Shown here one piece after another: positions 939-44,986 of a stretch of DNA of 64,000 bases. Position 1 is the stretch's first letter. Each line of letters opens with the position of its first letter. Both the position numbers and the translations under genes were made by a program. The notes beneath the pieces were generated by a model. It searched no databases. It had not been told where the DNA came from and saw only the letters and a list, made by a program, of their open reading frames with translations. Source of the stretch: a virus (Duplodnaviria > Heunggongvirae > Uroviricota > Caudoviricetes); IMG/VR virus record IMGVR_UViG_3300037455_000372, positions 75,710 to 139,709 of that record; one strand, written 5' to 3'.

Positions 939-1472
939 CTACTGCGCTGGCGCAGCGGCTGCGGAACCGCCGTTACCGCCACCATATCCGGCGTCAACGC
1001 CATTGATGGTAGCCGCTCCGGGACCAGCAAATGTAGCCTTGGTGCTGAATCCGGAAACCGGCTCGCTTCGGAGAGACGCAACCGACATCTCCACGGGCTT
1101 GGGTAGGTGGTCCTGCGCTTGCTTGATAAGGTTCTTGACCTTGGAAGTGGAGTTAAGCTTAACCGTCTTGGGAGTATTGTCGTTCTTGAACGCCTCGTTA
1201 GTATCTTCGAGAGGATCACGTGAGCATCGACCGCCGCACGGCTGGTACTCGTAAGGCTTCTGCACGTCGGCTTGAGACGTAGAGCTTGCGGTCGGCTGCA
1301 GCTTCATAATGTTCTTGTAGTTCGGGAACGGCGTGACTGCATTCTGGGCAGCCGGGACGGTCAGGTGTTTGGAATAGTCGGCCTCGCACAGCGACTTGTA
1401 TAAGTCGAAAGCGGACTTGGCGACTGGGCTGTCCTTTAGGCTTTCAAGAAGCTGTACGAACTGGTTAGACAT
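939..1472 (-). CDS. Hypothetical protein with shared N-terminal leader (candidate head cargo)
   Basis: 177 aa; N-terminus QFVQLLESL...YKSLCEA; TAATG overlap with upstream gene. Confidence 0.75.
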   Translation of the reverse strand: MSNQFVQLLESLKDSPVAKSAFDLYKSLCEADYSKHLTVPAAQNAVTPFPNYKNIMKLQPTASSTSQADVQKPYEYQPCGGRCSRDPLEDTNEAFKNDNTPKTVKLNSTSKVKNLIKQAQDHLPKPVEMSVASLRSEPVSGFSTKATFAGPGAATINGVDAGYGGGNGGSAAAAPAQ

Positions 1473-1804
1473 TACACACCTTCTTGCTGCTTATTCTGTT
1501 CTTCTTCCTGTTCAGCTTGGGCTGCAGCGGCATTAGCCTTGGCTGCGGTCTCGGCATTGACTGCCTTTAGGGTTTCGTCGGCGGTATCGGCAGCCTTCTT
1601 GGCCTCGGCCACCTTGGTCACGTCGCCTTGTAGTTCGGCTACCTGTTCCTCGGAAAGCTTGGATAGGTCGACTTGGTTCAGCGTAGCGTCATTGGGGTCG
1701 ACAGTCGCCTCATAAAGCGACTTCACCGCGATAGCGACATTAGGAAGGTTCTTGACTGCGCAAATACGGTCAACGGACTCGAAAAATTTTTCTTTATTTG
1801 TCAT
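1472..1804 (-). CDS. Hypothetical Ala/Glu-rich protein with shared leader
   Basis: 110 aa; KFFESVDRIC...VKSLYEA; late-type GATAAACT at 1833-1840. Confidence 0.75.
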   Translation of the reverse strand: MTNKEKFFESVDRICAVKNLPNVAIAVKSLYEATVDPNDATLNQVDLSKLSEEQVAELQGDVTKVAEAKKAADTADETLKAVNAETAAKANAAAAQAEQEEEQNKQQEGV

Positions 1805-1835
1805 TGATAAACCGGATATTCAGCTATATCCTAGT

Positions 1836-2867
1836 TTATCTAATCGCCAGAATTGCTATTGCAAATACAAGGACAAATAGTCCCAAACCAGCAAAGCACA
1901 AACGCATCTTTCGTAGCTCGGCTTTTAAAGATTCCACGGTTTCGTCAGTTTCCCTTTTCAAGGCAGTGAACTGGTTTACCACTCCGTTATATTCGCCTTC
2001 TAGGGTAGTGACTCTTACTGGGATCATATCCTTGTAAACCGGAGTCGTATACTTCTCGGCGGCTTTCTCGTTATCGTAGTCCGACTTAAACTGGTTATAC
2101 GCATCCGCTACTTCCCTAGTATTCTGGATGCAAGTACGGACTTGGGATGCAGTCATTTCAACCGCTCGCCATAGCTTACCGATTTCCTTGCCCACCTCGT
2201 CGTCCATAGTGGGTTCGTCGTTGCCGTCGTCATACGAATCGACACGGTCGAAACTAGGCTCCTCGCCAGACATTTCATCGTCGTAGGCTTTAGCGAAATC
2301 ACCAGCGAAACGGTCTACTATAGACTGTTCCTCCTCGGTCAGTTCCGTACCGCTCTCGATTCCGTCGATGATTGTCGATATCTTCAAGTCGCTCGACTCG
2401 GCGATGCTTGGCTTGAAATAGTGAACCGTGTACAGGTCGTCACCGTCGGAACCGTCGCGTGCGAACCCGTCGTAGAATTCCTCCGGAATATGCGTGTTGA
2501 GTGGAGCAATGATGGTCAGGTTATAATCGATTCCCATACTCTCCAAGGTTTCAGTAACCGTGGGGGACCCGATAATGGTAATGTCACCTACATTGTACTC
2601 TTCGCTTTTCTGCTGGAAGCCGACAGTCAATCGTGCCGCGCCTCGCTCGGACGTTGCAACTAGGACTCGTGATGTAAACAGGCCGAACTGCATCGGAGGC
2701 ATACCGCCGTACATTTTCGGCAGAATCGTCTGCGGTATCATCACTAGACGATGGTCGAATACCTTGTGAAGACCTTCGCACTCGAACACCTTGGTCGGAA
2801 GCGCGAACATATTCCTACGGATAAGATGTCCGTCGGCGTTGATGGTCATAAGCACATTGATATTCAT
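1836..2867 (-). CDS. Hypothetical protein with acidic middle, coiled coil and C-terminal membrane anchor
   Basis: 343 aa ending in hydrophobic LCFAGLGLFVLVFAIAILAIR; ATGA overlap with upstream ORF. Confidence 0.7.
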   Translation of the reverse strand: MNINVLMTINADGHLIRRNMFALPTKVFECEGLHKVFDHRLVMIPQTILPKMYGGMPPMQFGLFTSRVLVATSERGAARLTVGFQQKSEEYNVGDITIIGSPTVTETLESMGIDYNLTIIAPLNTHIPEEFYDGFARDGSDGDDLYTVHYFKPSIAESSDLKISTIIDGIESGTELTEEEQSIVDRFAGDFAKAYDDEMSGEEPSFDRVDSYDDGNDEPTMDDEVGKEIGKLWRAVEMTASQVRTCIQNTREVADAYNQFKSDYDNEKAAEKYTTPVYKDMIPVRVTTLEGEYNGVVNQFTALKRETDETVESLKAELRKMRLCFAGLGLFVLVFAIAILAIR

Positions 2868-3319
2868 TTCTTAACCTCAAACGTAACGTAGGATAGTTTG
2901 TACTTGCGTACGATGTGGTTCTCGTCCGGAGTACCGACACCAACCGGGTAGAACTCGATCTTGTCCAGACCGTGGGTATTGATAGTATCTTGTAGAAGCT
3001 TGCCGTACTTGTTCGCCTTGAGCTTGAACGAAATGATGAACTTTCCGTCCTCTATTCGTGCGCCTACCGATTCGGCCATAGCGTGTTCCGTCCACGCCTC
3101 GAACGGCATCTTCTTTTTCAGTCGGCGTTCCACCGGAGACACTTCCTCGATGTCGTACTTGGCCTTCCCGGTCATAATCTCAAGCAGAATCTCCTCCGCA
3201 AGAGACTGCGGATAGATATTACCGCCGGACTTGGTGGACTCGTCGACCTTTGTCGGCTTGTCCAGAATCATCACCACGGCATCGACGATTGTCGGCTCAC
3301 TTCTTTTCTTCTCCGCCAT
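2864..3319 (-). CDS. Prohead-protease (gp21)-like paralogue lacking catalytic residues
   Basis: Aligns by eye with 52514..53284: GNIYP/NRSYP, NKYGKLL/TPAGKTL, FYPVGVG/FSLRGAG. Confidence 0.55.
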   Translation of the reverse strand: MAEKKRSEPTIVDAVVMILDKPTKVDESTKSGGNIYPQSLAEEILLEIMTGKAKYDIEEVSPVERRLKKKMPFEAWTEHAMAESVGARIEDGKFIISFKLKANKYGKLLQDTINTHGLDKIEFYPVGVGTPDENHIVRKYKLSYVTFEVKK

Positions 3320-3602
3320 CGGACACCCACTTGTCGATTAGGTTTTTCTTGCCAAGCGAACGAACCATATCTTCCATAAGACGCTTGCGGCCAGACCAAT
3401 ACTTGGCGATAGCCATAAGGAACAGTCGGACTTGCGGTCCGATGTTCTTGTCGTTCAGCACCTTCATAGCGTTGGCGTGCATTTCTTTGCAACCGTTCCA
3501 GTCGGCGAACAGTTTCTTCTCGTCGGCCATCATAGTGTCGTAGAGTTTCTTCTGCTCAGCCGTGAGCGAGCGGATAATGTCTTCCGGTTTGGGTTGGTTC
3601 AT
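3297..3602 (-). CDS. Hypothetical helical protein
   Basis: Start re-assigned to MNQPKPED (ATG 3602); packed between neighbouring genes. Confidence 0.65.
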   Translation of the reverse strand: MNQPKPEDIIRSLTAEQKKLYDTMMADEKKLFADWNGCKEMHANAMKVLNDKNIGPQVRLFLMAIAKYWSGRKRLMEDMVRSLGKKNLIDKWVSDGGEEKK

Positions 3603-3603
3603 C

Positions 3604-3711
3604 TTAGTCTCCAAAGATAAAGATCGCGGCAAGAATCTCCGCAATCAATTCGAGGAATTCGCCAAAGCAGCCGATACGGTCGGCTGTAGATTCATTGTCT
3701 TTCTTACGCAT
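3604..3711 (-). CDS. Small 35-aa hydrophobic peptide
   Basis: Hand-translated MRKKDNESTADRIGCFGEFLELIAEILAAIFIFGD; fills the gap and overlaps the nuclease stop by 8 nt. Confidence 0.55.
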   Translation of the reverse strand: MRKKDNESTADRIGCFGEFLELIAEILAAIFIFGD

Positions 3712-4591
3712 TATTGCCACCAAACTTGTTCAAGAGCTGAACGGCCTCGGTCTGAAGGTCCTTGCACTTGAAAACCTTGTACGCCGGTTGTTCTTCGCTA
3801 AACCAGCAAAGATAGCAATTACCGATAGGAATGCCAGTCATCTCTTGGAACATATGCTTGTAGCAAGACAGCTGGAGGGAATATTCGTCAAGCTTGCACT
3901 GCATCAAGTGGCTGCAAGGGTCTTCTAGGTGGTACTTGGACTCGGTATCGAACTTGGTATTGGTTTTCCAGTCCCAAATCTCGAACTGTCCGGACTTCAC
4001 GTTCCAAAATAGCTGGTCTACCATTCCGCATACCATATACTTCGGGCTACCGATAACCAGTTCGGACTTTATTGGAATCATCTTTCCACGGATGTCGGCA
4101 ATGAACTTGTCAACCAGCTCGGTACACTTGACATACTTGGGGAACACCGGGTCCTTGCCATCGAACAGCTTGTCGAAAATCTGCGGATCCACGCCAGCGA
4201 CAAACTGGGTGTCCTTGAACAAATCTTGGAACATTTCCTCACGGCTCATACGGCTGGACATTTCCAGCATCACGTCGTATAGGGGGTACTTGAGGAATTT
4301 CTGGGCGATGGCGTGCTCGATATAGTTATGGACGGCGGTTCCCTTAGCGGTAGAGACCACATTTCCCAGCTTCCACTGGCGTCGTAGCTGTTCTGGGGTT
4401 ATGTCTTGACCTTCGGACTGCATTCGCTTGGCAGTGGCCTCCGAACGAGCGATTTCGTCGAATGGAGGGTTGACGGAGCCGGTGACACGGGTCACCGAAA
4501 CGGTACGATGGCCGTCAAAGGTATAGCTGTGATATTCCGGGTTAAAGCGGATTACGTTGAAAACATCGAGTTTTTGAGCCAAATTGTGCAT
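3704..4591 (-). CDS. PD-(D/E)XK superfamily (RecB/Cas4-like) exonuclease
   Basis: SVTRV, KGTAVHNYIE, ELVIG..CGMVDQL, EIWDWKTN and YSLQLSCY motifs. Confidence 0.85.
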   Translation of the reverse strand: MHNLAQKLDVFNVIRFNPEYHSYTFDGHRTVSVTRVTGSVNPPFDEIARSEATAKRMQSEGQDITPEQLRRQWKLGNVVSTAKGTAVHNYIEHAIAQKFLKYPLYDVMLEMSSRMSREEMFQDLFKDTQFVAGVDPQIFDKLFDGKDPVFPKYVKCTELVDKFIADIRGKMIPIKSELVIGSPKYMVCGMVDQLFWNVKSGQFEIWDWKTNTKFDTESKYHLEDPCSHLMQCKLDEYSLQLSCYKHMFQEMTGIPIGNCYLCWFSEEQPAYKVFKCKDLQTEAVQLLNKFGGNNA

Positions 4592-4593
4592 AG

Positions 4594-4622
4594 TTGCAAT
4601 TAAAATTCCTTATTTCTAAAAT
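4594..4622 (+). promoter_or_regulatory. sigma70-like promoter TTGCAA-N17-TAAAAT
   Basis: Exact 17-nt spacing; upstream of the 4662 gene, which has a GAGGA Shine-Dalgarno. Confidence 0.65.
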
Positions 4623-4661
4623 TACATCATTCTAGTTCTAAATTCAACCAGAGAGGAAACT

Positions 4662-5105
4662 ATGATCGAATACGCAAAACTGACCAACCGGACCATTACG
4701 ATGGCCGAAAATATGGCTGCCGAACTAAAGGCAGTCCCCGGCGAACGCGGCTACAGCGCACGAATTAGCCGCATCCACAATATGCTCCACATCAACGTGG
4801 AGACCGTGGACGCCATCATCAACAAGAACATCGGCGAAAAGTGGAAGGCCATTCCGGGCTACGAAAGCTACAAGGTGAGCAACTACGGTCGCCTTATCGG
4901 CATCAACGGAACCCTCATCACTTCCTACATCAGCAAGTCCGGTATCGAGATTTTCGACCCGTACCTTTCTGACCGCTCCAAGCGTCGCCACTTGGCCGTG
5001 AAGTCCGCAATCGCTCGCGCCTTCCTCCGTCCCAAGAAGTTCCAGAAGGTCGTGTACAGCGGTTCCGACAAGATCAACACGATTCACCATCTCGCTGTTG
5101 CCTAG
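4662..5105 (+). CDS. NUMOD4-motif protein (degenerate homing-endonuclease-like)
   Basis: EKWKAIPGYESYKVSNYGRL is a NUMOD4 motif; no intact HNH motif follows. Confidence 0.7.
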   Translation: MIEYAKLTNRTITMAENMAAELKAVPGERGYSARISRIHNMLHINVETVDAIINKNIGEKWKAIPGYESYKVSNYGRLIGINGTLITSYISKSGIEIFDPYLSDRSKRRHLAVKSAIARAFLRPKKFQKVVYSGSDKINTIHHLAVA

Positions 5106-5126
5106 TCCGGTTCCCTAATACCATTA

Positions 5127-5157
5127 AAGAAGTCCGCCGTATGGCGGACTTTTTCTT
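5127..5157. terminator. Bidirectional intrinsic terminator
   Basis: AAGTCCGCC-GTAT-GGCGGACTT with A/T flanks between convergent genes. Confidence 0.8.
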
Positions 5158-5893
5158 ATGCGTCGGAAGGAATCACGTTCGGAATCTCTTGCTGCAGTTC
5201 CGGAATAACCGTGAACAGCTTCCAGTGACCCGGCGAGAACTTGCGCTTTGCCGCCGTAAGAGCGGTCTGCTGGTCGGTATATTTGCCAGAATCGAATTCG
5301 GGCAGCCATTCGCCGGACGCGCCAGTAACCTTGACCTCACCGGTAGCCTTGTCCTTTTCCCTTCTCAGGTACTTACGGTGCCACACCTCGCCTTGAACCT
5401 TGATATAGGCATTCGGGAACATTTCCTTGACCTGTTCATACGGAAGTCTGGCAATCGCAGCCGCGTTGCGTTTGGCCATCGTCTCGTTGTTCTTCTCGAA
5501 CTGTTCGGTCATACGCTGGGCAATCATTTCATCACGGTTCTTGACCGCGTCGAAACCGGCCATATTGCCTTTCGCATCACGGAACTCAGGATGTTCGGCA
5601 TCGACTTCTTGGGCGATCTGGTCACGGGTCTTCTGACCGATTACCTTGGTGCGACGTTCGGGTGCCAATACGGTAGGAGCCTTGGCAGCTCGGACGGTTC
5701 CGTCCGGCGATTTTACGGTGATGTTGCCACGGAGCTGGTTAATCACACGGCTACGAGCGGCATCTTCATAGGGGTCGTAGGACTCGCAGAAGGCTGCAAA
5801 TCCTTTCTGCAGAGCCTCCGTAGCTTCGGTACAGCCACACTTCTGGCAAACACTTTCAATAAACGCGGAAAACTGTTTCTGATTCTCGGTCAT
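5156..5893 (-). CDS. Hypothetical late protein with shared leader
   Basis: 245 aa; FSAFIESVCQKCGC...LQKGFAAFCES; late motif at 5919-5926. Confidence 0.8.
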   Translation of the reverse strand: MTENQKQFSAFIESVCQKCGCTEATEALQKGFAAFCESYDPYEDAARSRVINQLRGNITVKSPDGTVRAAKAPTVLAPERRTKVIGQKTRDQIAQEVDAEHPEFRDAKGNMAGFDAVKNRDEMIAQRMTEQFEKNNETMAKRNAAAIARLPYEQVKEMFPNAYIKVQGEVWHRKYLRREKDKATGEVKVTGASGEWLPEFDSGKYTDQQTALTAAKRKFSPGHWKLFTVIPELQQEIPNVIPSDA

Positions 5894-5918
5894 AGGAAAC
5901 CCATCTTAGTTTCCTATC

Positions 5919-5926
5919 AGTTTATA
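5919..5926 (-). promoter_or_regulatory. Putative late promoter TATAAACT abutting an RBS-sequestering hairpin
   Basis: Motif followed by inverted repeat ATAGGAAAC-N8-GTTTCCTAT (5892-5917). Confidence 0.6.
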
Positions 5927-5928
5927 AG

Positions 5929-5954
5929 AACAGTCCTCCATCTGGAGGACTGTT
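5929..5954. terminator. Hairpin, probable terminator after the ASCH gene
   Basis: AACAGTCCTCC-ATCT-GGAGGACTGTT; weak U-tract. Confidence 0.55.
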
Positions 5955-5974
5955 TCAAGCTAAAACTTGGCCGA

Positions 5975-6373
5975 TTATTCAACGTCCCAAGTAATCACGA
6001 AGTATTTCTTACCGGGTTCGGCACCCCATTCCGGCTTGCCTTCATCGATTCGAATCTTCGGGTTATTAAACACCAAGCGGCGAGACGATTCAGCCTTGCT
6101 AGGATAGCCGCAAGTCAATTCGAGCTTCTTGAACTCCTTCTTGAATGCAATCCAGCAGCCAAGGTCGACCGCGTTCTGGAAAGCCAAATCACGGTCATCG
6201 GGGCCGCCGTGGTTGCGGAAGGACTTCATCATCTCGTCCATCTTGAGGAAACGAGAGATGTAGGTCGGCTTGATTTCGCGGTACTCCTCGGTCTTAACTC
6301 CAGACTTGATCATATCGAACCAAGGCTTGTTCAAGGCGAGGTAAAGGGTATCACTAGGCTTTTTCTTCGGCAT
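5975..6373 (-). CDS. ASCH/PUA-like domain protein
   Basis: LYLALNKPWFDMIKSGVKTEEYRE signature; start re-assigned to MPKKKPS. Confidence 0.8.
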   Translation of the reverse strand: MPKKKPSDTLYLALNKPWFDMIKSGVKTEEYREIKPTYISRFLKMDEMMKSFRNHGGPDDRDLAFQNAVDLGCWIAFKKEFKKLELTCGYPSKAESSRRLVFNNPKIRIDEGKPEWGAEPGKKYFVITWDVE

Positions 6374-6851
6374 TTGCTTCCTCGAAAATAAGGTGCCATT
6401 CAAGAAGGTGAATGAAGGTGTCGGCGAAATAATGAGTCTCGGTCTCGTGCGGACGCTCAAGCTTCAAGTCGTCGATAATCTTGTCCTTGTTTTCATCGAT
6501 GAACTTGTCGATGACATCCTCGACATTCATACAGATTGCCGCGTCGATGATGTTGTCGTCGCTCACGTTGAACTTGACCGTCTTGCCTTCTTGGTCAATC
6601 GTCTTGAACATTTCAGGATACTTTGTACGAACCTTCGGTCGCCACATCTGGGCGGCAATCTTCGGAGACTCATATTTTGCAGCGGCACCGGTCTGCGCGG
6701 CGATGGCGTAATCGGTCACGAACGGTTCGAGTTCCATAGGTATGGAAACTTCGAACGGGTATTCGTGCTTCTGCTGCGGGAGCATCTTGGGCATATCCAT
6801 CACGCGATCCTTCATCATAAACTGGATGCCCAACGAAAGTGTCAATTTCAT
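6354..6851 (-). CDS. Hypothetical protein
   Basis: 165 aa; ATGA overlap with the M48 gene stop; start uncertain. Confidence 0.65.
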   Translation of the reverse strand: MKLTLSLGIQFMMKDRVMDMPKMLPQQKHEYPFEVSIPMELEPFVTDYAIAAQTGAAAKYESPKIAAQMWRPKVRTKYPEMFKTIDQEGKTVKFNVSDDNIIDAAICMNVEDVIDKFIDENKDKIIDDLKLERPHETETHYFADTFIHLLEWHLIFEEANAEEKA

Positions 6852-7657
6852 TTCTTAACCTTAACCTTGAGAATTTCTTCCATAATGGCGATAAGCTGCT
6901 TCTCGCCCATTGTCTGGCTGCCGAACAGACCTTCGAAACTCTTCATCATATAGGTTATACGTTCCTTGGAGGCCGGATGCGTATGCTGACCATCGCCGTT
7001 ACCGAAACAGAGGAGCGAAAGCTCGCTCAATACCGTGGCGACAGCGGCGGACTGCACGTTAGACCCAGACTGGAGGACTGAACAAGCGAACAGGTCGGCT
7101 TGACGCTCGATATTGCGGTTTGCGGACATAATCGTACCGTCGTAGCCGCTGTCATCGACGTGACCAAGGCAGACGTGACCAAGCTCGTGGGCGAGCACGG
7201 AACGTGCGATTTCAAGCGTGCTGGAACGCCACTGCTCCAACTTGCCTTGGTTGAAGGAGTCGATGACCTTCTTCGGGTTACTGACACCGCAACCGTTAAT
7301 CATATCCTCGTAGATAGTTTCCGGAATCTCTCCGTCGAAATCGTTCTGGAGATAGTTCGAAGCCCAGTGTACCATCTTCAGCGTGTCGCTGAACTTCTGG
7401 CCATTATCGGCAAGCACCCAGATAAGTCCGAAAAGCCCGTTCCACATAAGGATGCCACGGAGAAGCGTAACCGTGTAACGGTTGCCTTCCTTGTTGGCGT
7501 ACGCATTGATCGTCGGGTCGTCGGATTCGTACCTGAATTCGGTATTGTCCGCGCACTCACGGTAACGAGCGTTACCCTGCACAAACTTGGACATAATGCA
7601 GAGACGGAACACGGTGAAAAGGTCATCCGTATCAATAATCTTGTTGAAGTTAAGCAT
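6848..7657 (-). CDS. Zinc metallopeptidase, M48/HEXXH type
   Basis: VLAHELGH, ERQADLFA and THPASKER motifs. Confidence 0.8.
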   Translation of the reverse strand: MLNFNKIIDTDDLFTVFRLCIMSKFVQGNARYRECADNTEFRYESDDPTINAYANKEGNRYTVTLLRGILMWNGLFGLIWVLADNGQKFSDTLKMVHWASNYLQNDFDGEIPETIYEDMINGCGVSNPKKVIDSFNQGKLEQWRSSTLEIARSVLAHELGHVCLGHVDDSGYDGTIMSANRNIERQADLFACSVLQSGSNVQSAAVATVLSELSLLCFGNGDGQHTHPASKERITYMMKSFEGLFGSQTMGEKQLIAIMEEILKVKVKK

Positions 7658-7910
7658 CGAACACCTCGATATTGTTTTCGGTTAAAAAGGCAATAATGGC
7701 GTCGCGCAGTCCCACGACACCGTTCTGCTTGCGGTACTTACCCATCATACCGCGAAGTTCCGGGACGTTGGTAATCGATACCCAGCGTTTCCATTCCCTG
7801 TCGTCCATAGCACCACGGATGGTCAAATCCATACCGTAGCAGCCGGGAGCAAAGTCGGGAACCGAGACCGGGCCGTCCCTGAAGTCATCAAAAGTAAGTC
7901 TTTTTGGCAT
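7650..7910 (-). CDS. Hypothetical protein
   Basis: Start re-assigned to MPKRLTF (7910), downstream of a sigma70-like promoter. Confidence 0.6.
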   Translation of the reverse strand: MPKRLTFDDFRDGPVSVPDFAPGCYGMDLTIRGAMDDREWKRWVSITNVPELRGMMGKYRKQNGVVGLRDAIIAFLTENNIEVFDA

Positions 7911-7936
7911 ATTTTGGATATATCCTATTGTATAGA

Positions 7937-7965
7937 AATATAGCACATTGAAGTTTATCTTGCAA
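7937..7965 (-). promoter_or_regulatory. sigma70-like promoter TTGCAA-N17-TATATT with extended -10 (TGC)
   Basis: Exact spacing; divergent from the late motif at 7979. Confidence 0.65.
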
Positions 7966-7978
7966 CAACCCCAAATCG

Positions 7979-7986: not shown

Positions 7987-8010
7987 GCAGAATGGTAAAG
8001 AGAGGTTCCT

Positions 8011-8793
8011 ATGAACGCCGAATTCTACATCAATTTGACCAAAATGAAGACGCTTCAGAACGCGTCAATTATCGAAAGCATCAAGGACATCTACTTCAAG
8101 AGCGAGCAGAAAGCCCAGTTCGAGAGCTGCGGCAAGATTATCGACTCGCAGAAGGAGATATTCTTCGAAAACGGTTCGGTGCGTTGCACCAAGGTCTCCG
8201 ACGGAATCATCGTCGAAGCGTCCGCAGTAGGCACCAAGAACCTATACGGTGTCGTTGCTGTCGTTAGCAATGGAACTTCTATGGACGACGCGATTACCGC
8301 CGGTAAGTGCGCGTTGGACAACCCGGTCATTATGGAAGGTTTGATTGACAGTTTCAAGCAGAAGATGAAGAAGTTCGCTTCGGTCGCCGCACTGTCTATC
8401 GCGCCGTTCCTTGTCGCTTGCGCCGGTGGCGGACACCAGCCTACGCTCGACCAAGCGGCCATCCTGAATACGGACACCATTCCGGAAATGGTGCAAGCAT
8501 TCTCGCAGAAGATTCGCGAGGAGGCCAACAATGTCCAAGACTACGACGTGACCAAGACCCCGTCCGGTCAGGAAGCCCAAGAAATCTATGCCGCCCTTAT
8601 GAACGGCACTATGAAGGTGAATGTCGAAGGCGATGATGACGCACAGAAGGCCGCCGCTCAAAAAGCAGCAACAGCATTCGCTCGCGGCCTCGACCAAGAA
8701 CTACGCGCAAAGCAGAAGCTCCCTGGATCTGAAAATATGTTCCATACCGCCGCAGCCGAACCGGCTGCCCAGCCGACCGAGGAGGTCAACTAA
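8011..8793 (+). CDS. Late protein with an internal lipoprotein-like signal segment
   Basis: 260 aa; IME-G followed by KQKMKKFASVAALSIAPFLVAC (lipobox-like LVAC). Confidence 0.7.
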   Translation: MNAEFYINLTKMKTLQNASIIESIKDIYFKSEQKAQFESCGKIIDSQKEIFFENGSVRCTKVSDGIIVEASAVGTKNLYGVVAVVSNGTSMDDAITAGKCALDNPVIMEGLIDSFKQKMKKFASVAALSIAPFLVACAGGGHQPTLDQAAILNTDTIPEMVQAFSQKIREEANNVQDYDVTKTPSGQEAQEIYAALMNGTMKVNVEGDDDAQKAAAQKAATAFARGLDQELRAKQKLPGSENMFHTAAAEPAAQPTEEVN

Positions 8794-22595: not shown

Positions 22596-23249
22596 TCATT
22601 CTTTCCAAGAGTTTGGCATAAATATCCAAGCATCTTTGGCGGCCTTGCAATGAGGACAACAAATAGTGGACTTTAGTGTGGTAAATTCCAATGCATACTT
22701 GTCTGGCCACTCGGTATATTGAACCGGCCTAGCTTTGCATCCGACCGGATGTCCGTGTGGATCCATAAAACCACATAATTTGAAGCTATGCTCTTCATCG
22801 GGCAAACAATCGTCGTTAAACCCGATTACACGGTATTGCCAGCCCATTTTTTCACAATATTTTACCTTTTCTTCACTCTGAACCGTATCCACAATCAAAA
22901 TCTGGTCAAATGAAACCGGTGGATTATCCAACTGGTGAAATGCGGCGACTCTTACGACATTGGGGAACTTTTGTATAGGTATCTTTCCGTTAGTCTTTAC
23001 CAGCGTCCTATACTTATTAGACGACAACCAACTGCATAATTGATTGATCCCATCATACAAAGACGGCTCTCCGCCAGTCAGCTCAATTATCCAATCTCTT
23101 GGACTCAAATTTTTTCGAATCCACGGAACTAGCCGTGCATTAGTTAGCTTGAACTTGTCATTGTCGGTATTGCGATACTTTGCCATAGGGCAATGCCAGC
23201 AAGACAAGTTACAAGAACTGGTTAATGAAATCTGGAAAAAGTTAAGCAT
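22596..23249 (-). CDS. Radical SAM protein
   Basis: CNLSCWHC (CxxxCxxC), ELTGGEP, and extra C-terminal Cys (CGF..GC...CCPHC) suggesting an auxiliary cluster. Confidence 0.88.
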   Translation of the reverse strand: MLNFFQISLTSSCNLSCWHCPMAKYRNTDNDKFKLTNARLVPWIRKNLSPRDWIIELTGGEPSLYDGINQLCSWLSSNKYRTLVKTNGKIPIQKFPNVVRVAAFHQLDNPPVSFDQILIVDTVQSEEKVKYCEKMGWQYRVIGFNDDCLPDEEHSFKLCGFMDPHGHPVGCKARPVQYTEWPDKYALEFTTLKSTICCPHCKAAKDAWIFMPNSWKE

Positions 23250-35967: not shown

Positions 35968-35973
35968 AGTTAA

Positions 35974-38351: not shown

Positions 38352-38385
38352 TTGACTTGTTTCCTTTCTTTCAATAAACGAACCA

Positions 38386-38598
38386 CTAAGGGTGCGAAAT
38401 CTTGATGTCATTCGCCGCTGCCACCTGATTCTTGAAACGAGCGGATTTCCAATACCGGTCCATCCGTTTAGAAATCGCGAACTCCGCATCCTTCCTCACG
38501 AAGTGAAAGCGCATTCCTCGAACCAACGTCTTGGGGATCCAATGCACTATTCGCCAAATAACGTGGGCGCAGCAAGCGATGTACAGAACAGACTTCAC
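38386..38598 (-). CDS. Small basic protein with a hydrophobic N-terminal segment
   Basis: GTG start after an AGGA SD, just behind the upstream stop: MKSVLYIACCAHVIWRIVHW. Confidence 0.5.
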   Translation of the reverse strand: MKSVLYIACCAHVIWRIVHWIPKTLVRGMRFHFVRKDAEFAISKRMDRYWKSARFKNQVAAANDIKISHP

Positions 38599-38608
38599 AA
38601 GTTTCCTA

Positions 38609-38833
38609 CTAACGAGACCTTGAGGACAGACGACCGATTGACGCGTCTTGGCACTTGTCATTATTGGTCTTGGCCGTGCCGAAAGTCTTCTTCATCGTGT
38701 TAACGAGCTTCATAAGCATATGGACTACGATTCCGACATACATAAGGTACTGAGCCTTGTCGAGAATCTTGAAGAGCCAGTCATACTTCTTCGGCTTAGG
38801 CTCCTCGATAATTTGGATAAGCATTTTTAACAT
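38609..38833 (-). CDS. Small single-pass membrane protein
   Basis: YLMYVGIVVHMLMKLV hydrophobic stretch; first gene after a sigma70-like promoter. Confidence 0.55.
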   Translation of the reverse strand: MLKMLIQIIEEPKPKKYDWLFKILDKAQYLMYVGIVVHMLMKLVNTMKKTFGTAKTNNDKCQDASIGRLSSRSR

Positions 38834-38863
38834 AAAAATCTCCGCCTGAGTTAGACGGAGAAA

Positions 38864-38892
38864 ATAATAGCTGCGAAAAATTTGAAACTCAA
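38864..38892 (-). promoter_or_regulatory. sigma70-like promoter TTGAGT-N17-TATTAT
   Basis: Exact spacing; upstream of the small-membrane-protein/AAA operon. Confidence 0.55.
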
Positions 38893-38924
38893 GCCGATTT
38901 GGGTCGAGTTATGTAAAAAGATAT

Positions 38925-39560
38925 TTACTTACGTTCAACAAATTCGGAACACCAGACAGAGTTTCCGTTGCGGAAATCTTCGTCGACATCCCAGAACTCG
39001 CCATCCGGTCCGTATTCGGGGTTCAAGCCGTGAGCGTCGATGCCGTCGGCGGCCATTTCTTCCTCGAAGTCCTTGAGTTCTTTCAAGTCACTTTCTTCAA
39101 GACCGCTGGTATCGCCGTTAACCAAAGCAGAAAGCAATTTTTCCGGAACATAGGCACAGCGAATTTCGCCGCGAGAAGTATCGGTCTTCTTGATTGCCAC
39201 GTTCTGAACCGGCACATAACCCTTGGACACTTCGATGTAGTCTTCCGGATGTTCAGGCGTGTCTGTCTCAGCATAACCTTCGATACCGTGTTCGGCCAGC
39301 TTGGTGATTACCGTGTCAATGGCATCGGATTCGTCAGAAGCTTGGACGGTAATTTCAAGCGGATGGGGGTCGATACCACCGTGACTCAAGGTCACGTCGA
39401 AGTTCGGCCTATCGGAAAGGTTAATGTACTTGCAGTCTGCACCAGTAGATTCGCAGAACGCCTCGAACCCCTTCTGGAGAAGCGGAAGCGCATCCTTGCA
39501 GTTGAGCTTGTCGCACACGCCTTCCATAAAGGCCGCATACATTTGTTGTTTTTTGTCCAT
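38925..39560 (-). CDS. Hypothetical acidic protein with shared leader
   Basis: YAAFMEGVCDKLNC...LQKGFEAFCES, nearly identical to the N-terminus of 5156..5893. Confidence 0.8.
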   Translation of the reverse strand: MDKKQQMYAAFMEGVCDKLNCKDALPLLQKGFEAFCESTGADCKYINLSDRPNFDVTLSHGGIDPHPLEITVQASDESDAIDTVITKLAEHGIEGYAETDTPEHPEDYIEVSKGYVPVQNVAIKKTDTSRGEIRCAYVPEKLLSALVNGDTSGLEESDLKELKDFEEEMAADGIDAHGLNPEYGPDGEFWDVDEDFRNGNSVWCSEFVERK

Positions 39561-39574
39561 AAGAGGTTCCTCTT

Positions 39575-40324
39575 TTAGCTAAGGTCGGTCATCATAAACG
39601 GTTGTGCGGACTGAGCCTTCAGTTCTTCCATAAGGCGTTTCCACTCTTCCAAACCGTCAGTGTAAATCTGTTGTCCGTTCACCTTGCCGCCACCCGGAAG
39701 AGGCATATCGTCCTTCTTCAAGATACGTCCAAGCTGGATTTCCGCACGGGCGAGAGCCATATCTTGGAACAGCGGGTTGGCAAACACTTCGTACTTCTTC
39801 GCCTTGACATAGACCGTAGCGATTGCCACACGGTCAGACTTCGGCGTCGGGTAGACACGAAGAATGTGCTGTTGCGGATGGAGCTTGATGTTGTACTGTG
39901 TACCCACCAGCTTCTTCACGTCTTGCAAGTAGCGCAAGGCACCGGAATAAGTAATCAAGTCGAACTGTCCAAGTCCGCCCAAACCGGCACCGCCGACACC
40001 CATTAGGGATTCGCCCGGACCCACGTCCCAAGCCATCATCGGCGAAAAAGTGTTACCATAGGACGGCGATACGTCGACCACTTCCATAATCTCGTCAGGC
40101 ACTCGGTACTGGATAACCCCAGCCTTCAATCGGAGCACCATAGCGTCCATATAGGAAGCTTCGTCTTGGTTGATACGGTAGAACCAGTTCAAGGTATCGT
40201 TCACGGCCATATGGAGGTGACCGAGGCCATTGCGTTCCTCAACCACCATTTCGATTTCGGTGCAAGGATAACCAAGCATCGCCTTGATTTTTTCAACCAT
40301 ATCATCGGTCGTGATAATCTGCAT
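39575..40324 (-). CDS. gp13: Neck protein, T4 gp13-like
   Basis: KIKAMLGYPCTEIE; C-terminal PLPGGGKVNGQQIYTDG. Confidence 0.8.
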   Translation of the reverse strand: MQIITTDDMVEKIKAMLGYPCTEIEMVVEERNGLGHLHMAVNDTLNWFYRINQDEASYMDAMVLRLKAGVIQYRVPDEIMEVVDVSPSYGNTFSPMMAWDVGPGESLMGVGGAGLGGLGQFDLITYSGALRYLQDVKKLVGTQYNIKLHPQQHILRVYPTPKSDRVAIATVYVKAKKYEVFANPLFQDMALARAEIQLGRILKKDDMPLPGGGKVNGQQIYTDGLEEWKRLMEELKAQSAQPFMMTDLS

Positions 40325-40335
40325 CGGCTACCTCA

Positions 40336-40833
40336 TTAAGCAGAAAACTGCTGGTACTTGTAAATGATGGTGGTCATAGCCTCGTCGAAATCGGCGAAGA
40401 TATTCTTGACTCCTTCGGGGAACTTGTCGTTCTTCTTCACGGCGTCGTTCATATGCTTGTCGATGTACTTGAGGAGTTCAAGGACAGCCTTGTCGTCCAG
40501 ATCGGTCGACTTGGAGGCAGCCGGGAATTCCTTGTCGCACGGCTTGTTGGTCAGTGCCATATAGGTCTCGGCAAGCTTGTCACCGGCATCGCGGCAAAGG
40601 TCATAAGCCTCGTTCAAGAGGGTATGCTTAACCATTCGGTCTACATTCCAGTGGATTTGGTTAAGTGCGTTCGCCTCCACGAGGAGCCAGACGGCCATTT
40701 CCTTCAAAGTTTCGTAGTTATTGCCAACACCATCCCCGGCTTCCAGTCGAGGAGCATAGGCAGCCAATACGGCAGCACTGTTGTTGGGGCAGACACGCTG
40801 TACGGACTCGCAAAAAAGCTTGTAATTCGCCAT
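40336..40833 (-). CDS. Ferritin/Dps-like four-helix protein with shared leader
   Basis: QIHWNV...KHTLLNEAYD...DKLAETY resembles the Dps ferroxidase motif; N-terminus LFCESVQRVC. Confidence 0.65.
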   Translation of the reverse strand: MANYKLFCESVQRVCPNNSAAVLAAYAPRLEAGDGVGNNYETLKEMAVWLLVEANALNQIHWNVDRMVKHTLLNEAYDLCRDAGDKLAETYMALTNKPCDKEFPAASKSTDLDDKAVLELLKYIDKHMNDAVKKNDKFPEGVKNIFADFDEAMTTIIYKYQQFSA

Positions 40834-40860
40834 TTTTAAGCACCAGATTGTTTACAATGC

Positions 40861-40899
40861 AGTTTATATGTTGCACCGAAACCACCGAATTGCTATATT
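40861..40899. promoter_or_regulatory. Divergent pair: late TATAAACT (40861-40868, minus) and sigma70-like TTGCAC-N17-TATATT (40871-40899, plus)
   Basis: Both read directly from the sequence, with exact spacing. Confidence 0.6.
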
Positions 40900-40923
40900 C
40901 TTGAAAAACTATCCGAGGTAAAT

Positions 40924-41241
40924 ATGACCCAAGAAGAACAGACTACCGAACTGAATCCAGAACAGAAGGCAAAGAAGAGCCAAGTCGAAGCCTTCATCAA
41001 GGAAATCGAAAAGCACGAAAACGACCCGGAATACCGTCATATGATGGAAAATCTCCGCCGAGTACAGAAAGAGTTTAAGGAATTTATGGCTTTGCCGAAG
41101 GAACAGCGTTCCAAGATTATGTTCGGCATTCAAGTCCAGCTTATCCGCCGCGAAATCGATGCGAATCCGGAATCTCCGTACAACTGGCAGCGTCGCGAAA
41201 AAGAGGAACGCGGTCGAGGAACCGTCACGAAGATCGGCTAA
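40924..41241 (+). CDS. Hypothetical charged helical protein
   Basis: 105 aa; GAGG SD; sigma70-like promoter upstream. Confidence 0.65.
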   Translation: MTQEEQTTELNPEQKAKKSQVEAFIKEIEKHENDPEYRHMMENLRRVQKEFKEFMALPKEQRSKIMFGIQVQLIRREIDANPESPYNWQRREKEERGRGTVTKIG

Positions 41242-41636
41242 TCCTTGGCCACGCGCACCATATAACAGACATTCGATTTAGGATGGGGTTCGTTTACGAA
41301 AACGAATCCCATTTTTTCATAGAACCCGAACGCGTCGCGCTTTGCTACTAGCTTGATTGCACGGTGTTCTTGCATAACCATTTCCATAATACGCCGTCCG
41401 ATGCCCATTTTCTGGTAAGGCTTTGCCACCTCTAGGCACCATACCTTTGCAAACGCCGGATAATATCCCAGCTGGACGACCGCAATGCCGACAATCTTGC
41501 CGTCGATTCTGGCAACATACGCCGGAAATCCGAAAAAGTCGTTCTTTTTCATCATTGCGGTGAGCAAAGTGAGGTCTTCGTTGCCAGGAATCTCGGCTAC
41601 AGACCTCGGCATTTCAATTTTATCTAGTGTTTCCAT
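41238..41636 (-). CDS. GNAT-family acetyltransferase
   Basis: LEVAKPYQKMGIGRRIM and AFGFYEKMGF. Confidence 0.9.
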   Translation of the reverse strand: METLDKIEMPRSVAEIPGNEDLTLLTAMMKKNDFFGFPAYVARIDGKIVGIAVVQLGYYPAFAKVWCLEVAKPYQKMGIGRRIMEMVMQEHRAIKLVAKRDAFGFYEKMGFVFVNEPHPKSNVCYMVRVAKD

Positions 41637-42220
41637 CCAAAATGACTCGGAAACGCGTCAACGACTCCGTGTAACGGCGTGTTTATCGTGAATGGTTTCC
41701 ACGTCTTGAAGTTGAACTCTTGGGAAGGATCAACCGCTTCCTCCGACGCGACCGCTAGGAGAATGTACGGCGGATTGTCAACCGACTTGAACAGTCCGGA
41801 CACGCCCACGGCGATTGCCTCCACAGCAACACCAAGCGACACCACTTCAAGTTCGACGGTCTTACCCAAGTTTTCAGCAAGGAAGTCAACGATTTCAGGG
41901 TTCTGGTAGACATCGCCGCGAGAAACAACCACCATCTTCGAGTAGACAGTCCAACCGTTCGGAATGCCGTCGAACAATATGTCAATGATTTTCTTCTTCG
42001 ACACCTCGTCAAGGAAAATACCGAAATATTGCGGTTTTTCGCCATTTCCGATGTCCATCAAGTGTTTCCGGTAATACTCGCGACGGAAGGCGATCGCGTG
42101 TTCCTTTGTCCACTGAACCATACGCGGTTCACCCAAGTCTCGTCCGGCTTTTTCGGACTCGATATATTTGTCACGGAGCATTTCTTCTTTTTGCTCCGCC
42201 ATCATAGCCTTCATATCCAT
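41624..42220 (-). CDS. 2H-phosphoesterase-like protein with degenerate His motifs and a small N-terminal domain
   Basis: YFGIFLDE..IPNGWTVY-SKMV..LGKTVELEV..AIAVGV..NPPYILLAV follows the tRNA-ligase-type 2H pattern but lacks both HxT motifs. Confidence 0.55.
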   Translation of the reverse strand: MDMKAMMAEQKEEMLRDKYIESEKAGRDLGEPRMVQWTKEHAIAFRREYYRKHLMDIGNGEKPQYFGIFLDEVSKKKIIDILFDGIPNGWTVYSKMVVVSRGDVYQNPEIVDFLAENLGKTVELEVVSLGVAVEAIAVGVSGLFKSVDNPPYILLAVASEEAVDPSQEFNFKTWKPFTINTPLHGVVDAFPSHFGWKH

Positions 42221-42314
42221 TGGCCGGACCTCCCTACTATCAAATATAGTTTATCGACCAAAAAGCGTCCACCGATTACTCGATGGACGTGTAAACACTT
42301 ATAAACACCAATAA

Positions 42315-42740
42315 CTAGGCGGTTTCGGTCGTGTCGTCAGCAGACTTCTTCTTGCGAGAGGTCTTCTTTGCGATAACGACAGCGTCACCAGCTTCCTCGC
42401 CGACGGAAATGCCGTTCACGAGGTCGTTAGCCTTCTCGTCTTCCTTGACGAAAGCGTTATAGGCTTCTTCCTGAACAGCTTCCGGAAGGGGTTCAGACTT
42501 CGTTTCAGCGGTCGGCTGCACAAACATCGTACCGAAGTCCATCTTCTCAAGATTCTTCAAGAAATCCTGATACTCGGCGCGGTACTTCGCAATCATATCT
42601 TCAGTGACTGCGTTTGCGTTGAGTGCGTTGGAAGCGCGGTTCTGCTCGGCCACCTTGGCGGCCATATGCTGCTGAACCATAGCTTCAGTCTGGGGAGAAC
42701 GAGGCATCGTCTTGATGCTGGTTACTTTGAAATTGAGCAT
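42315..42740 (-). CDS. Hypothetical late protein
   Basis: 141 aa; TATAAACA at 42783-42790. Confidence 0.7.
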   Translation of the reverse strand: MLNFKVTSIKTMPRSPQTEAMVQQHMAAKVAEQNRASNALNANAVTEDMIAKYRAEYQDFLKNLEKMDFGTMFVQPTAETKSEPLPEAVQEEAYNAFVKEDEKANDLVNGISVGEEAGDAVVIAKKTSRKKKSADDTTETA

Positions 42741-42785
42741 TGTTTGTCCATTGTTGTGGGGAGATACCCCGTGTTATCACTATGT

Positions 42786-43001
42786 TTATAACTTCTTTCC
42801 CATCTTGATGCCGGTGAGTACCGGTGTATCGGCTCCGCCAGTCAGTTCCTTCTCGTACGTAAGGTCTTCCATATAGGCTTCGAGACGGCTCTTGCACTTG
42901 ACAGTTTCCTTGCCGCCCATAGGGAGAGTGGGCATCGTCTGGTTCGCTGCGGCAATAGTCTGCTGCCGCTTCTTGTTCAGCAAAAAATCAATATCTAGCA
43001 T
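42786..43001 (-). CDS. Hypothetical protein
   Basis: 71 aa; TGATG overlap with the gp15 stop. Confidence 0.6.
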   Translation of the reverse strand: MLDIDFLLNKKRQQTIAAANQTMPTLPMGGKETVKCKSRLEAYMEDLTYEKELTGGADTPVLTGIKMGKKL

Positions 43002-44605
43002 CAGGTCACTTCCGTGGTTCTAAGTGCAATCATAGTCTCAGAGAAATTAGTCTTGACACCAAACGCACCCTTCTTGCCTTCATCGTAAAGCACGAAGTAG
43101 AAAGAGTAGATGGTTGTGTTGTCGCAACGTATCGGTTCGCTTTCAAAACGCTTGAACATCGAAGTCGTGTGATATGCGAAATAGAGTTTTCCATCGCTCA
43201 CACCCCAGTCGAACCACACCTCACCCTTCGGTATTACAGTACCGTCAGAAAGCGTCACGTCTTCTGGATTGTACAGGTATTGGAAAACCGTATCGCACTG
43301 CTGCTTGAACTGCAGCGTCGCCTTGAAGGTATAGGACTCCTCAATCTTTCCTTCCTTGTTATCGCCAAACCAGTTGAGGATGTGCGACCAGTCCGTAGCG
43401 GTCTCATAACCACCCGGCGCATAGCTTCCGTTACCCGGTGCCAAGTCCGGAACAAATTCACGAGTTTCGTCGTTCACCGCAACGAAGTCACGACCCATAC
43501 CGCTGTAATCGACTTCAAGGTCGGTGTCCTCGTCGAAGTTAAGATGGATCAAGTCAAACTGCGGAACCTCTACCGGACGCGCAACATCGCCGACAACCAC
43601 GTCCTCCCAAGAGTAAATGGGAATCGGGTCGCCGTCGGCATCAGTTATCTCCTTACCAGCCGCATTCTTCTGGTTTCCCTTGTAGATAGGGTTGTAACCG
43701 CCCATCGTCTTTCCAATCTGGTTCCGGTGAGTAATGTCGTTAGGATCTCGAATTGTCAAATCGAGTTCCTTCATCGTCATATCCTTCCAGTATTCCTCGC
43801 CGTTCTCGTCAGTCCTACGAACAAGCGTACGCGTGAAGGTTTTCAGGAGAGACCAGCCTTCACGGATGGACGGCTCGACGGTTTCCCAGAGGTGTTTCTT
43901 CTGCTGCGCGATTTCATCCGGATAAACGAACACTTGGAGCGAATCTTGATACTCGTTGTTCACAATGAAATTCATCTGCGCATACTTGATTATGGCCGGG
44001 AGTTCATAGGGACGGTGATAGACAGCGATTGCCTCAATAGTGTAGGTAGTCTTGTAGAACTGGTACTCATTGCTGGTGTCACCCTTCTCGTCGTCAAGGT
44101 TATCGCTCCACGTAATCTTGAACGGAATCGGACGCTCGATCTTCGGTGCGAAATCCCATTCCTTGATACGGACGGTTCTATAGGTGTTGAAGTACGGCTC
44201 GATCTGTTCCTTCAAGAAAAAGAAGTCCGCCAAGTTGTCCGAAAGTACAGTAAGCTCGAACGTAATCGTCATCGGCGTAGGCTGGATATCACGGACGAAC
44301 TTCTCGATATCCTCGGCGAGGATTTCGCGAGCGTAGGTCGGCTGTACCATATGAGTCTCGTCGTGACGGTTAGACACATACCGGAAACCAGCGCAAGGAA
44401 CCGGCATCGGCTCTTGGGCTGTGGCCGTCGATGACACATAGTTTGCAAAGTCGTCAGAATTGTGCGAGTACAGCGGCACAGCTACCGTACGGTTCTCCAC
44501 AGTGCGGTTCTGGTCATCATAGCGTTTCACTCTCAAATTGTTGAAAACGTCCATAATGGCAATCATTACTTTCTCAATTTCGCGAACGTAGTATACCGGA
44601 GTCAT
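43001..44605 (-). CDS. gp15: Tail terminator / sheath stabiliser, T4 gp15-like, with C-terminal extension
   Basis: EIEKVMIAIMDVFNNL, VAVPL, PTPMTITFEL..EQIEPYFN; ~280 extra residues including a LamG-like LNFDE..DYSG motif. Confidence 0.8.
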   Translation of the reverse strand: MTPVYYVREIEKVMIAIMDVFNNLRVKRYDDQNRTVENRTVAVPLYSHNSDDFANYVSSTATAQEPMPVPCAGFRYVSNRHDETHMVQPTYAREILAEDIEKFVRDIQPTPMTITFELTVLSDNLADFFFLKEQIEPYFNTYRTVRIKEWDFAPKIERPIPFKITWSDNLDDEKGDTSNEYQFYKTTYTIEAIAVYHRPYELPAIIKYAQMNFIVNNEYQDSLQVFVYPDEIAQQKKHLWETVEPSIREGWSLLKTFTRTLVRRTDENGEEYWKDMTMKELDLTIRDPNDITHRNQIGKTMGGYNPIYKGNQKNAAGKEITDADGDPIPIYSWEDVVVGDVARPVEVPQFDLIHLNFDEDTDLEVDYSGMGRDFVAVNDETREFVPDLAPGNGSYAPGGYETATDWSHILNWFGDNKEGKIEESYTFKATLQFKQQCDTVFQYLYNPEDVTLSDGTVIPKGEVWFDWGVSDGKLYFAYHTTSMFKRFESEPIRCDNTTIYSFYFVLYDEGKKGAFGVKTNFSETMIALRTTEVT

Positions 44606-44622
44606 CTATACACCTCATTCGC

Positions 44623-44649
44623 AGTTTATCATAACCAACCATATAAACT
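44623..44649. promoter_or_regulatory. Back-to-back late motifs (GATAAACT minus 44623-44630; TATAAACT plus 44642-44649)
   Basis: Divergent gap between gp15 and the 44672 gene. Confidence 0.6.
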
Positions 44650-44671
44650 GACGGTAAAGAGAGGTTATATT

Positions 44672-44986
44672 ATGACACCAGCAACCGACGAACAGAAGCT
44701 TTTCATTTTCCGTCTCGGAAAACTCGCAACCGACGAAAACCGCGCCGTCATTGAAGGCGTTACCAAGGCGTTCGGCCTAATCAACAACATCGATACGACC
44801 TTGACGGAAGCCGAAGTGAGCAAGTTCGACGCGATCAACTTCCTCGAAGCCCAGCGCGGAGACACCGACCCCAAGGCGTTCCTCGAATCTGTGTCAGCAA
44901 CGGTTCTCGCAGAAACCCAGCCAGCCGACTTCGGACAAGTCCGTAAGGCTCTAAACGAATACAGACAGTTCCTCTCCAGAGAATAA
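44672..44986 (+). CDS. Small late protein (candidate head cargo)
   Basis: Start re-assigned to ATG 44672 (GAGG SD); VIEG, LTEA and FLES sites. Confidence 0.7.
   Translation: MTPATDEQKLFIFRLGKLATDENRAVIEGVTKAFGLINNIDTTLTEAEVSKFDAINFLEAQRGDTDPKAFLESVSATVLAETQPADFGQVRKALNEYRQFLSRE

Follow-up and report, generated by a model that had tools for sequence, protein, structure and literature searches.

Why should otherwise unrelated late proteins of a single phage begin with almost the same stretch of residues? The question is raised by a 64,000-nucleotide stretch of DNA, referred to as the window, which covers bases 75710-139709 of one 355,392-bp contig from an uncultured phage (G000). Positions are those of the window unless marked as genome positions, and proteins are named after the position at which their genes start. 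The original prediction held that five proteins of the window (5893, 39560, 1804, 1472, and 40833), and in looser form three more (878, 8011, and 44672), share one N-terminal leader that addresses diverse cargo to the phage head. The analysis described here identifies one portable leader family, named class 1, which is carried by two of these proteins and is probably an extended capsid-targeting propeptide of the T4 type, and separates from it several other N-termini that had been grouped with it.

The class-1 leader in the phage genome

The 5893 and 39560 proteins are alike over their N-terminal ~38 residues and are unrelated past residue 42. A profile built from the five earlier examples retrieved a sixth protein, encoded outside the window at genome 265413-265754 (E 1.3e-10); these three proteins make up class 1 in G000, and their aligned leaders have 16 invariant columns. 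Leave-one-out profiles searched among 2,537 open reading frames (ORFs) recover 5893 (E 5e-7), 39560 (E 4e-5), and the out-of-window copy (E down to 1e-10), and they miss the N-termini of 1804, 1472, and 40833. An independent 10-sequence profile, which includes the copies of related phages, also misses these three and finds in G000 only the same three class-1 members, two of them in the window. This split of the set points to a single statistically solid family, and 1804, 1472, and 40833 were rejected as class-1 members because neither the leave-one-out nor the independent profile recovers their N-termini. A leader shared by unrelated proteins is therefore upheld for 5893 and 39560, the only two named proteins that belong to it.

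The class-1 consensus reads M..QK.Y.AF[MI]ESVC.KF.C.EALPAL.EGF.A[FL]CE|[AS], in which, as below, the vertical bar marks the predicted cut. In the window, the family is represented by the following features.

5783..5893 (-), class-1 leader of the 5893 protein (gene 5156-5893), residues 1-37 of 245, predicted cut FCE|S after Glu37
5156..5782 (-), cargo part of the 5893 protein, with no known family or fold and six homologues
39450..39560 (-), class-1 leader of the 39560 protein (gene 38925-39560, 211 residues), predicted cut FCE|S after Glu37

The 5893 leader has an additional internal cut-like site, FIE|S, at Glu13, and all Pfam matches of the 5893 cargo are below threshold. A signal peptide was rejected by inspection, the leader being amphipathic and charged and having no hydrophobic core.

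Conservation in relatives and metagenomes

Through the capsid protein, whose identity to its counterparts in cultured phages does not exceed about 31%, 63 related loci were reached in IMG/VR. Five long ones were obtained in full length, and together with G000 they form the six genomes compared throughout.

G001, 308 kb, capsid-protein identity 96%
G002, 348 kb, capsid-protein identity 88%
G003, 253 kb, capsid-protein identity 75%
G004, 260 kb, capsid-protein identity 74%
G005, 422 kb, capsid-protein identity 68%

The six genomes hold ten class-1 copies (three in G000, two in G001, three in G003, and two in G005), each at residue 1 of its ORF. When the profile of these ten copies was run against 1.84 billion protein cluster representatives, it matched 181 clusters at E<=1e-3 and 109 at E<=1e-10. 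The leader is placed at residues 1-5 in 138 of the 150 listed matches; in the others, the start seems to have been called wrongly or an upstream ORF to read through into the gene. When the final Glu serves as the anchor of the alignment, positions -36 to +1 have a high information content, which drops to background at +2; conservation stops at the Glu|Ala/Ser bond. P1 is Glu in 143 of the 149 sequences in which it was left unconstrained. Among the 131 sequences anchored on this Glu, P3 is always F, L, Y, M, I, or W (131/131); Cys occupies P2 in 120, and a residue out of A, S, T, and G occupies P1' in 128. The three conserved cysteines are C16 (130/131), C21 (112/131), and C36 (120/131). The first helix carries Y or F (126/131), any two residues, F (128/131), one of M, I, L, or V, and then E.

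Behind this sharply bounded leader, the 133 cargo parts of 45-415 residues fall into 74 BLAST groups, 56 of which are singletons. The predicted portability of the N-terminal module is supported, the leader standing almost always at residue 1 and in front of 74 unrelated cargo groups. Pfam and PHROG scans of the leader proteins and the 150 metagenomic members gave no match to the leader and, in the cargo, only a few zinc ribbons and DUF6926; a tblastn search of 50,697 cultured-phage records with the leader also found no match. Pairwise identity is 0.65, 0.70, and 0.38 at codon positions 1, 2, and 3, respectively, and 265 of the 505 codon pairs that encode identical residues differ in codon. As judged from these codon comparisons, selection on the class-1 leader acts on the protein and not on the DNA, and a nucleotide-level element was rejected on the same codon-position identities and differing codons.

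The genomic context of two metagenomic members consists only of phage-like arrays of small unknown genes. In the metagenomic proteins P0033, P0034, and P0049, a class-1 leader fused in frame to an upstream ORF runs into a stop codon after just 4-5 further residues (...FCE-TFHK); these are possibly leader-only remnants after loss or exchange of the cargo, or gene-calling artefacts. Locus L156, which carries P0137, encodes a 433-residue protein with a divergent class-1 leader beside genes with Pfam Tad4 and WDGH domains. From its name, we take Tad4 to be a Thoeris anti-defence family, and if the name is read correctly, the surroundings of L156 would be a counter-defence neighbourhood.

Predicted cleavage junctions and structure

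A T4-type set of head genes, backed by matches to PHROG 207, 138, and 213, is encoded in the window.

54148..55650 (-), gp23-type major capsid protein (PHROG 138, E 1.5e-68), which aligns to T4 gp23 in PDB
52514..53284 (-), gp21-type prohead protease (PHROG 207; match to T4 gp21, PDB 5JBL, 3e-11)
51659..52510 (-), putative scaffold of 283 residues, helical, beginning ILTE|A, gp22-like by gene order only and aligned across the six genomes
53285..53443 (-), prohead-core-like protein of 52 residues behind the late motif TATAAACT, with two conserved hydrophobic-E|S sites
55803-57503, gp20-type portal (PHROG match)

A family search of the scaffold (Pfam) gave no match. In the middle of this module, a gene for a 166-residue protein, 53545-54045 (-), separates the capsid gene from that of the small core protein.

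T4 gp21 cuts after the Glu of L/I-x-E, and its cleavage was first observed at a Glu-Ala bond (PMC9026906). The sites LIE-A in the capsid protein, LTE-A in the scaffold, and LTE-S in the protease are all present as originally claimed. In all six genomes, the T4-like delta region of the capsid protein ends in x-x-E|[AS]-A-N, the predicted maturation cut in G000 being LIE|A after Glu51; L-T-E|S is conserved close to the C-terminus of the protease, and both hydrophobic-E|S sites of the small core protein are likewise retained. The class-1 leader ends in the same Glu|Ala/Ser junction as the capsid protein and the protease, and it holds a second one inside (F-[MI]-E|S).

The AlphaFold2 model of the 5893 protein shows helices at residues 3-19 and 22-38 with predicted local distance difference test (pLDDT) values of 74-81, a linker of low confidence, and a folded cargo at residues 90-234 made of helices and a long beta-hairpin. 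A fold search of this model against PDB and BFVD gave nothing at E<=0.001 and only weak HU/IHF-like rows; that the cargo may bind DNA is a weak lead from several of these non-significant rows. A predicted complex of the leader (132-row alignment) with the scaffold scored 0.00 in a run without controls, and this counts neither way.

Association with the late motif

The octamer TATAAACT is a T4-late-like motif that differs from the T4 late motif, TATAAATA, in its last two bases. It occurs 58 times in the genome compared with 10.8 expected copies (5-fold), typically 30-40 nucleotides 5' of the ATG of structural genes (fibre, baseplate, and core). Its likely reader, to go by the sequence match, is the gp55-like late sigma factor listed here with the motif copies that concern the leader genes.

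46437..47180 (-), gp55-like late sigma factor (PHROG 234, E 5e-13)
5919..5926 (-), TATAAACT, 33 nucleotides before the ATG at 5893
40861..40868 (-), TATAAACT, heading an operon of the Dps-like gene (40833), the neck/adaptor gene, and the 39560 gene
39575-40324, neck/adaptor gene (PHROG head-tail adaptor match)
910-917, TATAAACT before the 878 gene
1833..1840 (-), GATAAACT, a late-motif variant preceding the paired genes 1804 and 1472

The proposed position of these genes behind the late motif was confirmed: TATAAACT stands directly before 5893, 40833, 878, 8011, 44672, and the out-of-window copy, GATAAACT precedes 1804, and 1472 and 39560 lie downstream within such operons. The motif is found 18-42 nucleotides before the ATG in 5 of the 10 class-1 genes and 7 of 15 class-2 genes (see below), and the remaining five class-1 genes have it 1.3-1.8 kb upstream on the same strand. 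Class-1 copies are found inside structural operons, beside the neck gene and, in G005, beside the capsid gene. In G002, where 10.6 copies of TATAAACT are expected, only 14 exact ones occur; that phage may use a different late motif. Collectively, these comparisons establish at the sequence level that the class-1 module is N-terminal, portable, under protein-level selection, and linked to the late motif.

Other leader types

An all-against-all comparison of N-termini from the six genomes recovered class 1 and a second family in G005. This class 2, collected by jackhmmer, comprises ~20 G005 proteins with the pattern ..[LI]F.E[SA][VI]..[LM]GL[ST]..Q.EA...L..AC[FL]E|[ASG], and it includes or resembles three N-termini at the left end of the window.

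771..878 (-), class-2 leader of the 878 protein, residues 1-36, ending MFE|G; protein of 297 residues whose gene runs past the left end of the window
1709..1804 (-), class-2-like leader of the 1804 protein (gene 1472-1804, 110 residues), residues 1-32, ending LYE|A
1383..1472 (-), class-2-like leader of the 1472 protein (gene 939-1472, 177 residues), residues 1-30, ending LCE|A

Of the three looser examples, 878 does bear a leader: the class-2 jackhmmer search reached it with an E of 9e-5, and both G001 and G002 have orthologues that retain the leader. The 1804 protein's own search leads to a G005 protein (E 5e-18) that is itself a weak class-2 member (E 0.008). The 1472 gene is translationally coupled to the 1804 gene, and the full-length G005 homologue of its product (119304-119885) bears a class-2 leader. 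Together with 40833, the N-termini of 1804 and 1472 fit a two-motif architecture, defined as hydrophobic-x-E-[SAGT] with its Glu at positions 5-16 plus hydrophobic-x-E-[SAG] with its Glu at positions 26-44. Such N-termini number 6-7 in G000 compared with 0.5-0.6 expected from internal windows or shuffles.

The other two looser examples, 8011 and 44672, have late motifs and match no leader profile, and their N-termini were rejected as leaders. The G002 orthologue of the 8011 protein does not retain the E|S sites, and the best reading is that the resemblance of both proteins is due to chance. The late protein of 260 residues encoded at 8011-8793 (+) has, by eye, a lipoprotein-signal-like stretch in its middle (…FLVAC…), and the corresponding G001 ORF spans only its first ~120 residues, so that the window gene may be a fusion.

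A third leader type, 'GYKAC.E|G', is found in G003 and ends ...GYKACME|G; its own jackhmmer search finds nothing, and a 130-sequence class-1 profile misses it. Residues 46-210 of the 39560 protein, which belong to its cargo, are 51% identical to residues 142-304 of a G003 ORF, the plausible start of which is an internal Met followed by this different leader (...GYKACME|G). That related phages join orthologous cargo to different leaders speaks for leaders that are exchangeable modules serving a single function.

Two further N-terminal arrangements were observed. A late protein encoded at genome 260990-261763, as well as its G001 orthologue, contains a leader-like two-helix motif twice, at residues 1-42 and 142-179. 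A 27-member family in tandem arrays (genome 280117-283059 and 48955-52780; also in G002, G003, and G005) shares only ~20 N-terminal residues, M-[KRE]-T-[IVF]-R-x-x-x-F-E-T-N-S-S-S-x-H, and is divergent after them; it is a second family with a conserved head and a variable body and is unrelated to the leader.

The Dps-like protein

The 40833 protein bears a leader of its own kind.

40741..40833 (-), leader of the Dps-like protein (gene 40336-40833), residues 1-31, variable, two helices, predicted cut RLE|A after Glu31

This extension differs between homologues both in its sequence and in its size, which ranges from about 18 to 48 residues. Even so, all 50 homologues of one alignment have Glu31-Ala32, as visibly do those of an alignment of 54, and the conserved x-D-G-K-G start of the Dps-like domain comes next. 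In the AlphaFold2 model, helices at residues 2-14 and 19-34 precede a four-helix bundle, and pLDDT drops to less than 50 over residues 33-37, exactly where the cut is predicted. Dps proteins account for all of the 50 best PDB matches of the model, with template modelling (TM) scores of 0.6-0.7 and root-mean-square deviations of 2.5-3.5 Å. The protein matches PHROG 858, and a match to Pfam DUF5856 is below the cut-off. H61, H70, D85, and E89 are invariant in the 50 homologues; their equivalence to the Dps ferroxidase ligands (His, His, Asp, Glu) was judged by eye only.

Proposed function and alternative explanations

On the sequence evidence, we consider it probable that the class-1 leader is an extended T4-type capsid-targeting propeptide that is cut by the gp21-type protease. 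The 37-residue helix-turn-helix propeptide would be translated late, its first helix presenting the T4-like determinants Y-x-x-F-[MI], and would dock the attached protein onto the scaffolding core during building of the prohead. Cleavage by the gp21-type protease would follow, behind the invariant Glu (hydrophobic-Cys-Glu|Ala/Ser) and, probably, at the internal F-[MI]-E|S site as well; the cargo released in this way within the head would either remain with the DNA or enter the host by ejection. Class 2, the leader of the Dps-like protein, and the GYKAC.E|G type appear to do the same job in this clade.

Several observations weigh against this proposal. The leader is about four times as long as the T4 capsid-targeting sequence (CTS) and has three conserved Cys. 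The T4 internal proteins IPI-III are small and highly basic and provide only a handful of cargos, unlike the at least 74 groups found here, which are mostly acidic: the median isoelectric point (pI) of the class-1 cargo is 4.84, compared with a genome median of 6.04, and 107 of 133 cargo parts lie below 5.5 and only 6 above 8. Class 1 and class 2 align end to end in hhalign with a P of only 0.04-0.07, which does not demonstrate homology between them, and the proteins originally pooled as bearers of a single leader belong to at least three leader classes. The profile scan finds class-1 copies in neither G002 nor G004, which are close relatives; both nonetheless keep the leader of the Dps-like protein, and G002 also has a class-2 leader. 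Finally, hydrophobic-x-E-[SAG] occurs by our own estimate about once per 200-250 residues, and being so common, the motif alone is weak evidence.

The strongest competing explanation, which we regard as unlikely, is that the hairpin is an uncleaved docking or oligomerisation domain for a partner outside the capsid, such as a common hub of host or phage or an intracellular complex, the variable C-termini being effector or specificity domains as in polymorphic toxins. It would accommodate both the acidic cargo, so unlike the T4 internal proteins, and the three conserved Cys, which a tag that is merely cut off does not explain. It does not account for conservation that stops exactly at a Glu followed by a small residue, a junction conserved in the capsid protein and the protease, and it is opposed by the apparent tie of expression to the late structural promoter motif, by the copies within structural operons (neck gene; capsid gene in G005), and by the Dps-like family with its invariant Glu-Ala behind a hypervariable extension. 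If targeting to the head is right, there is a smaller but real chance that the cargo is not injected and consists instead of internal structural proteins, proteins that condense or protect DNA, or auxiliaries of the scaffold, which would be retained or degraded. One cargo has the fold of a Dps-like miniferritin, and assembled Dps cages would be too large for a tail channel, which supports such a fate; the HU/IHF-like rows of the 5893 cargo, weak and non-significant, point the same way, as does the processing of the T4 core proteins gp67, gp68, and gp22, which are likewise substrates (PMC9026906). However, T4 internal proteins and Alt are ejected (PMC9026906), and 74 unrelated cargo groups with fast turnover look more like the repertoire of an arms race.

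Two further explanations concern what kind of element the leader is. Chance, low complexity, or a 5' nucleotide element such as a ribosome-loading or recombination site has a negligible probability and is refuted for class 1: upstream regions are conserved too in some metagenomic copies, but the leave-one-out E values, the 181 clusters, the low identity at third codon positions, and the many differing codons for identical residues all stand against it. Hardly more credible is a leader of a ribosomally synthesised and post-translationally modified peptide (RiPP), which would be recognised by a modifying enzyme (there is a radical SAM gene at 22596-23249), with the variable part as the modified core. 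Conserved leader, hypervariable remainder, and cleavage junction follow the same logic, and the leader contains Cys. The RiPP leader was rejected because of cargo size and scattered genes: the cargo measures 45-415 residues, and one modelled class-1 cargo folds as a domain, while the leader genes are dispersed and none lies beside the radical SAM gene, which is coupled to the tail-fibre operon.

Relation to known systems

The CTS of T4 is reportedly present on IPI, IPII, IPIII, and Alt, a finding said to go back to Mullaney and Black in 1996. Its sequence is MKTYQEFIAE, in which Y4 and F7 are needed for targeting and I8 and E10 for processing (PMC9026906, PMC8442874), and T4 internal proteins are diverse, with the CTS alone conserved (PMC3012670). 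Placing Asp at the T4 cut site prevents processing and leaves targeting intact (PMC9026906). As in T4, the N-terminal tag is the sole conserved part of unrelated late proteins and ends in hydrophobic-x-Glu plus a small residue, and a gp21-type protease, a gp23-type capsid protein, and a scaffold that is gp22-like by gene order are encoded. The Y-x-x-F-[IM] core matches Y4 and F7 of T4 as a resemblance only, the leader having no detectable sequence homology to MKTYQEFIAE. Unlike the T4 CTS of about 10 residues, the leader has 37 residues, two helices, two cut-like sites, and three conserved Cys.

The phiKZ-like giant phages (phiKZ, 201phi2-1, and SPN3US) have long N-terminal propeptides on head and ejection proteins (PMC5694885, PMC10052503). 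Like the class-1 leader with its predicted cuts, these are longer than the T4 CTS and have several internal cut sites. They are found on packaged proteins of jumbo phages that have a gp21-related protease. However, phiKZ-type proteases cut S/A-x-E, with a small P3, whereas P3 is hydrophobic or aromatic in all 131 sequences here. The phiKZ-type propeptides, moreover, are 80-160 residues long and do not constitute a single portable module that is conserved between proteins, and the head genes here are of the T4 type.

Cargo-loading peptides of encapsulins, which are usually C-terminal, bind the shell directly and are uncleaved, load ferritin-like cargo into HK97-fold shells. The likeness is one of analogy only, a terminal peptide that addresses unrelated cargo, with a Dps-like cargo in the present case and no sequence relation. 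The novelty lies in form and scale: a helical hairpin of 37 residues that contains Cys and two cut-like sites, cargo from no fewer than 74 groups, sister leader classes in the same clade, and a Dps-like protein among the tagged cargo.

Implications

It is conceivable, if somewhat short of probable, that the hairpin is a general cargo address of a T4-type capsid, and that a search with its profile lists the complete repertoire of proteins that a large clade of uncultured jumbo phages packages and perhaps injects. If so, this repertoire would comprise at least 74 unrelated, mostly acidic families of unknown function, and through the sister leader classes, a Dps-like miniferritin would be loaded into an HK97-fold shell in an encapsulin-like manner. 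The conserved Cys would point to a docking chemistry based on metal or thiol, which is not known for the T4 CTS. Proteins inside the heads of uncultured jumbo phages, a class that is hard to predict, could then be listed from sequence alone. T4 in-head proteins include anti-restriction and host-takeover factors, and the list would hold dozens of function-unknown families, many of them acidic enough to be considered as DNA mimics or defence inhibitors. The notion of the T4 CTS, a peptide of 10 residues, would be widened to include a folded module of two helices, for which structural work together with its receptor in the scaffolding core should be easier, and the longer, more specific tag could be used to load foreign proteins into phage capsids.

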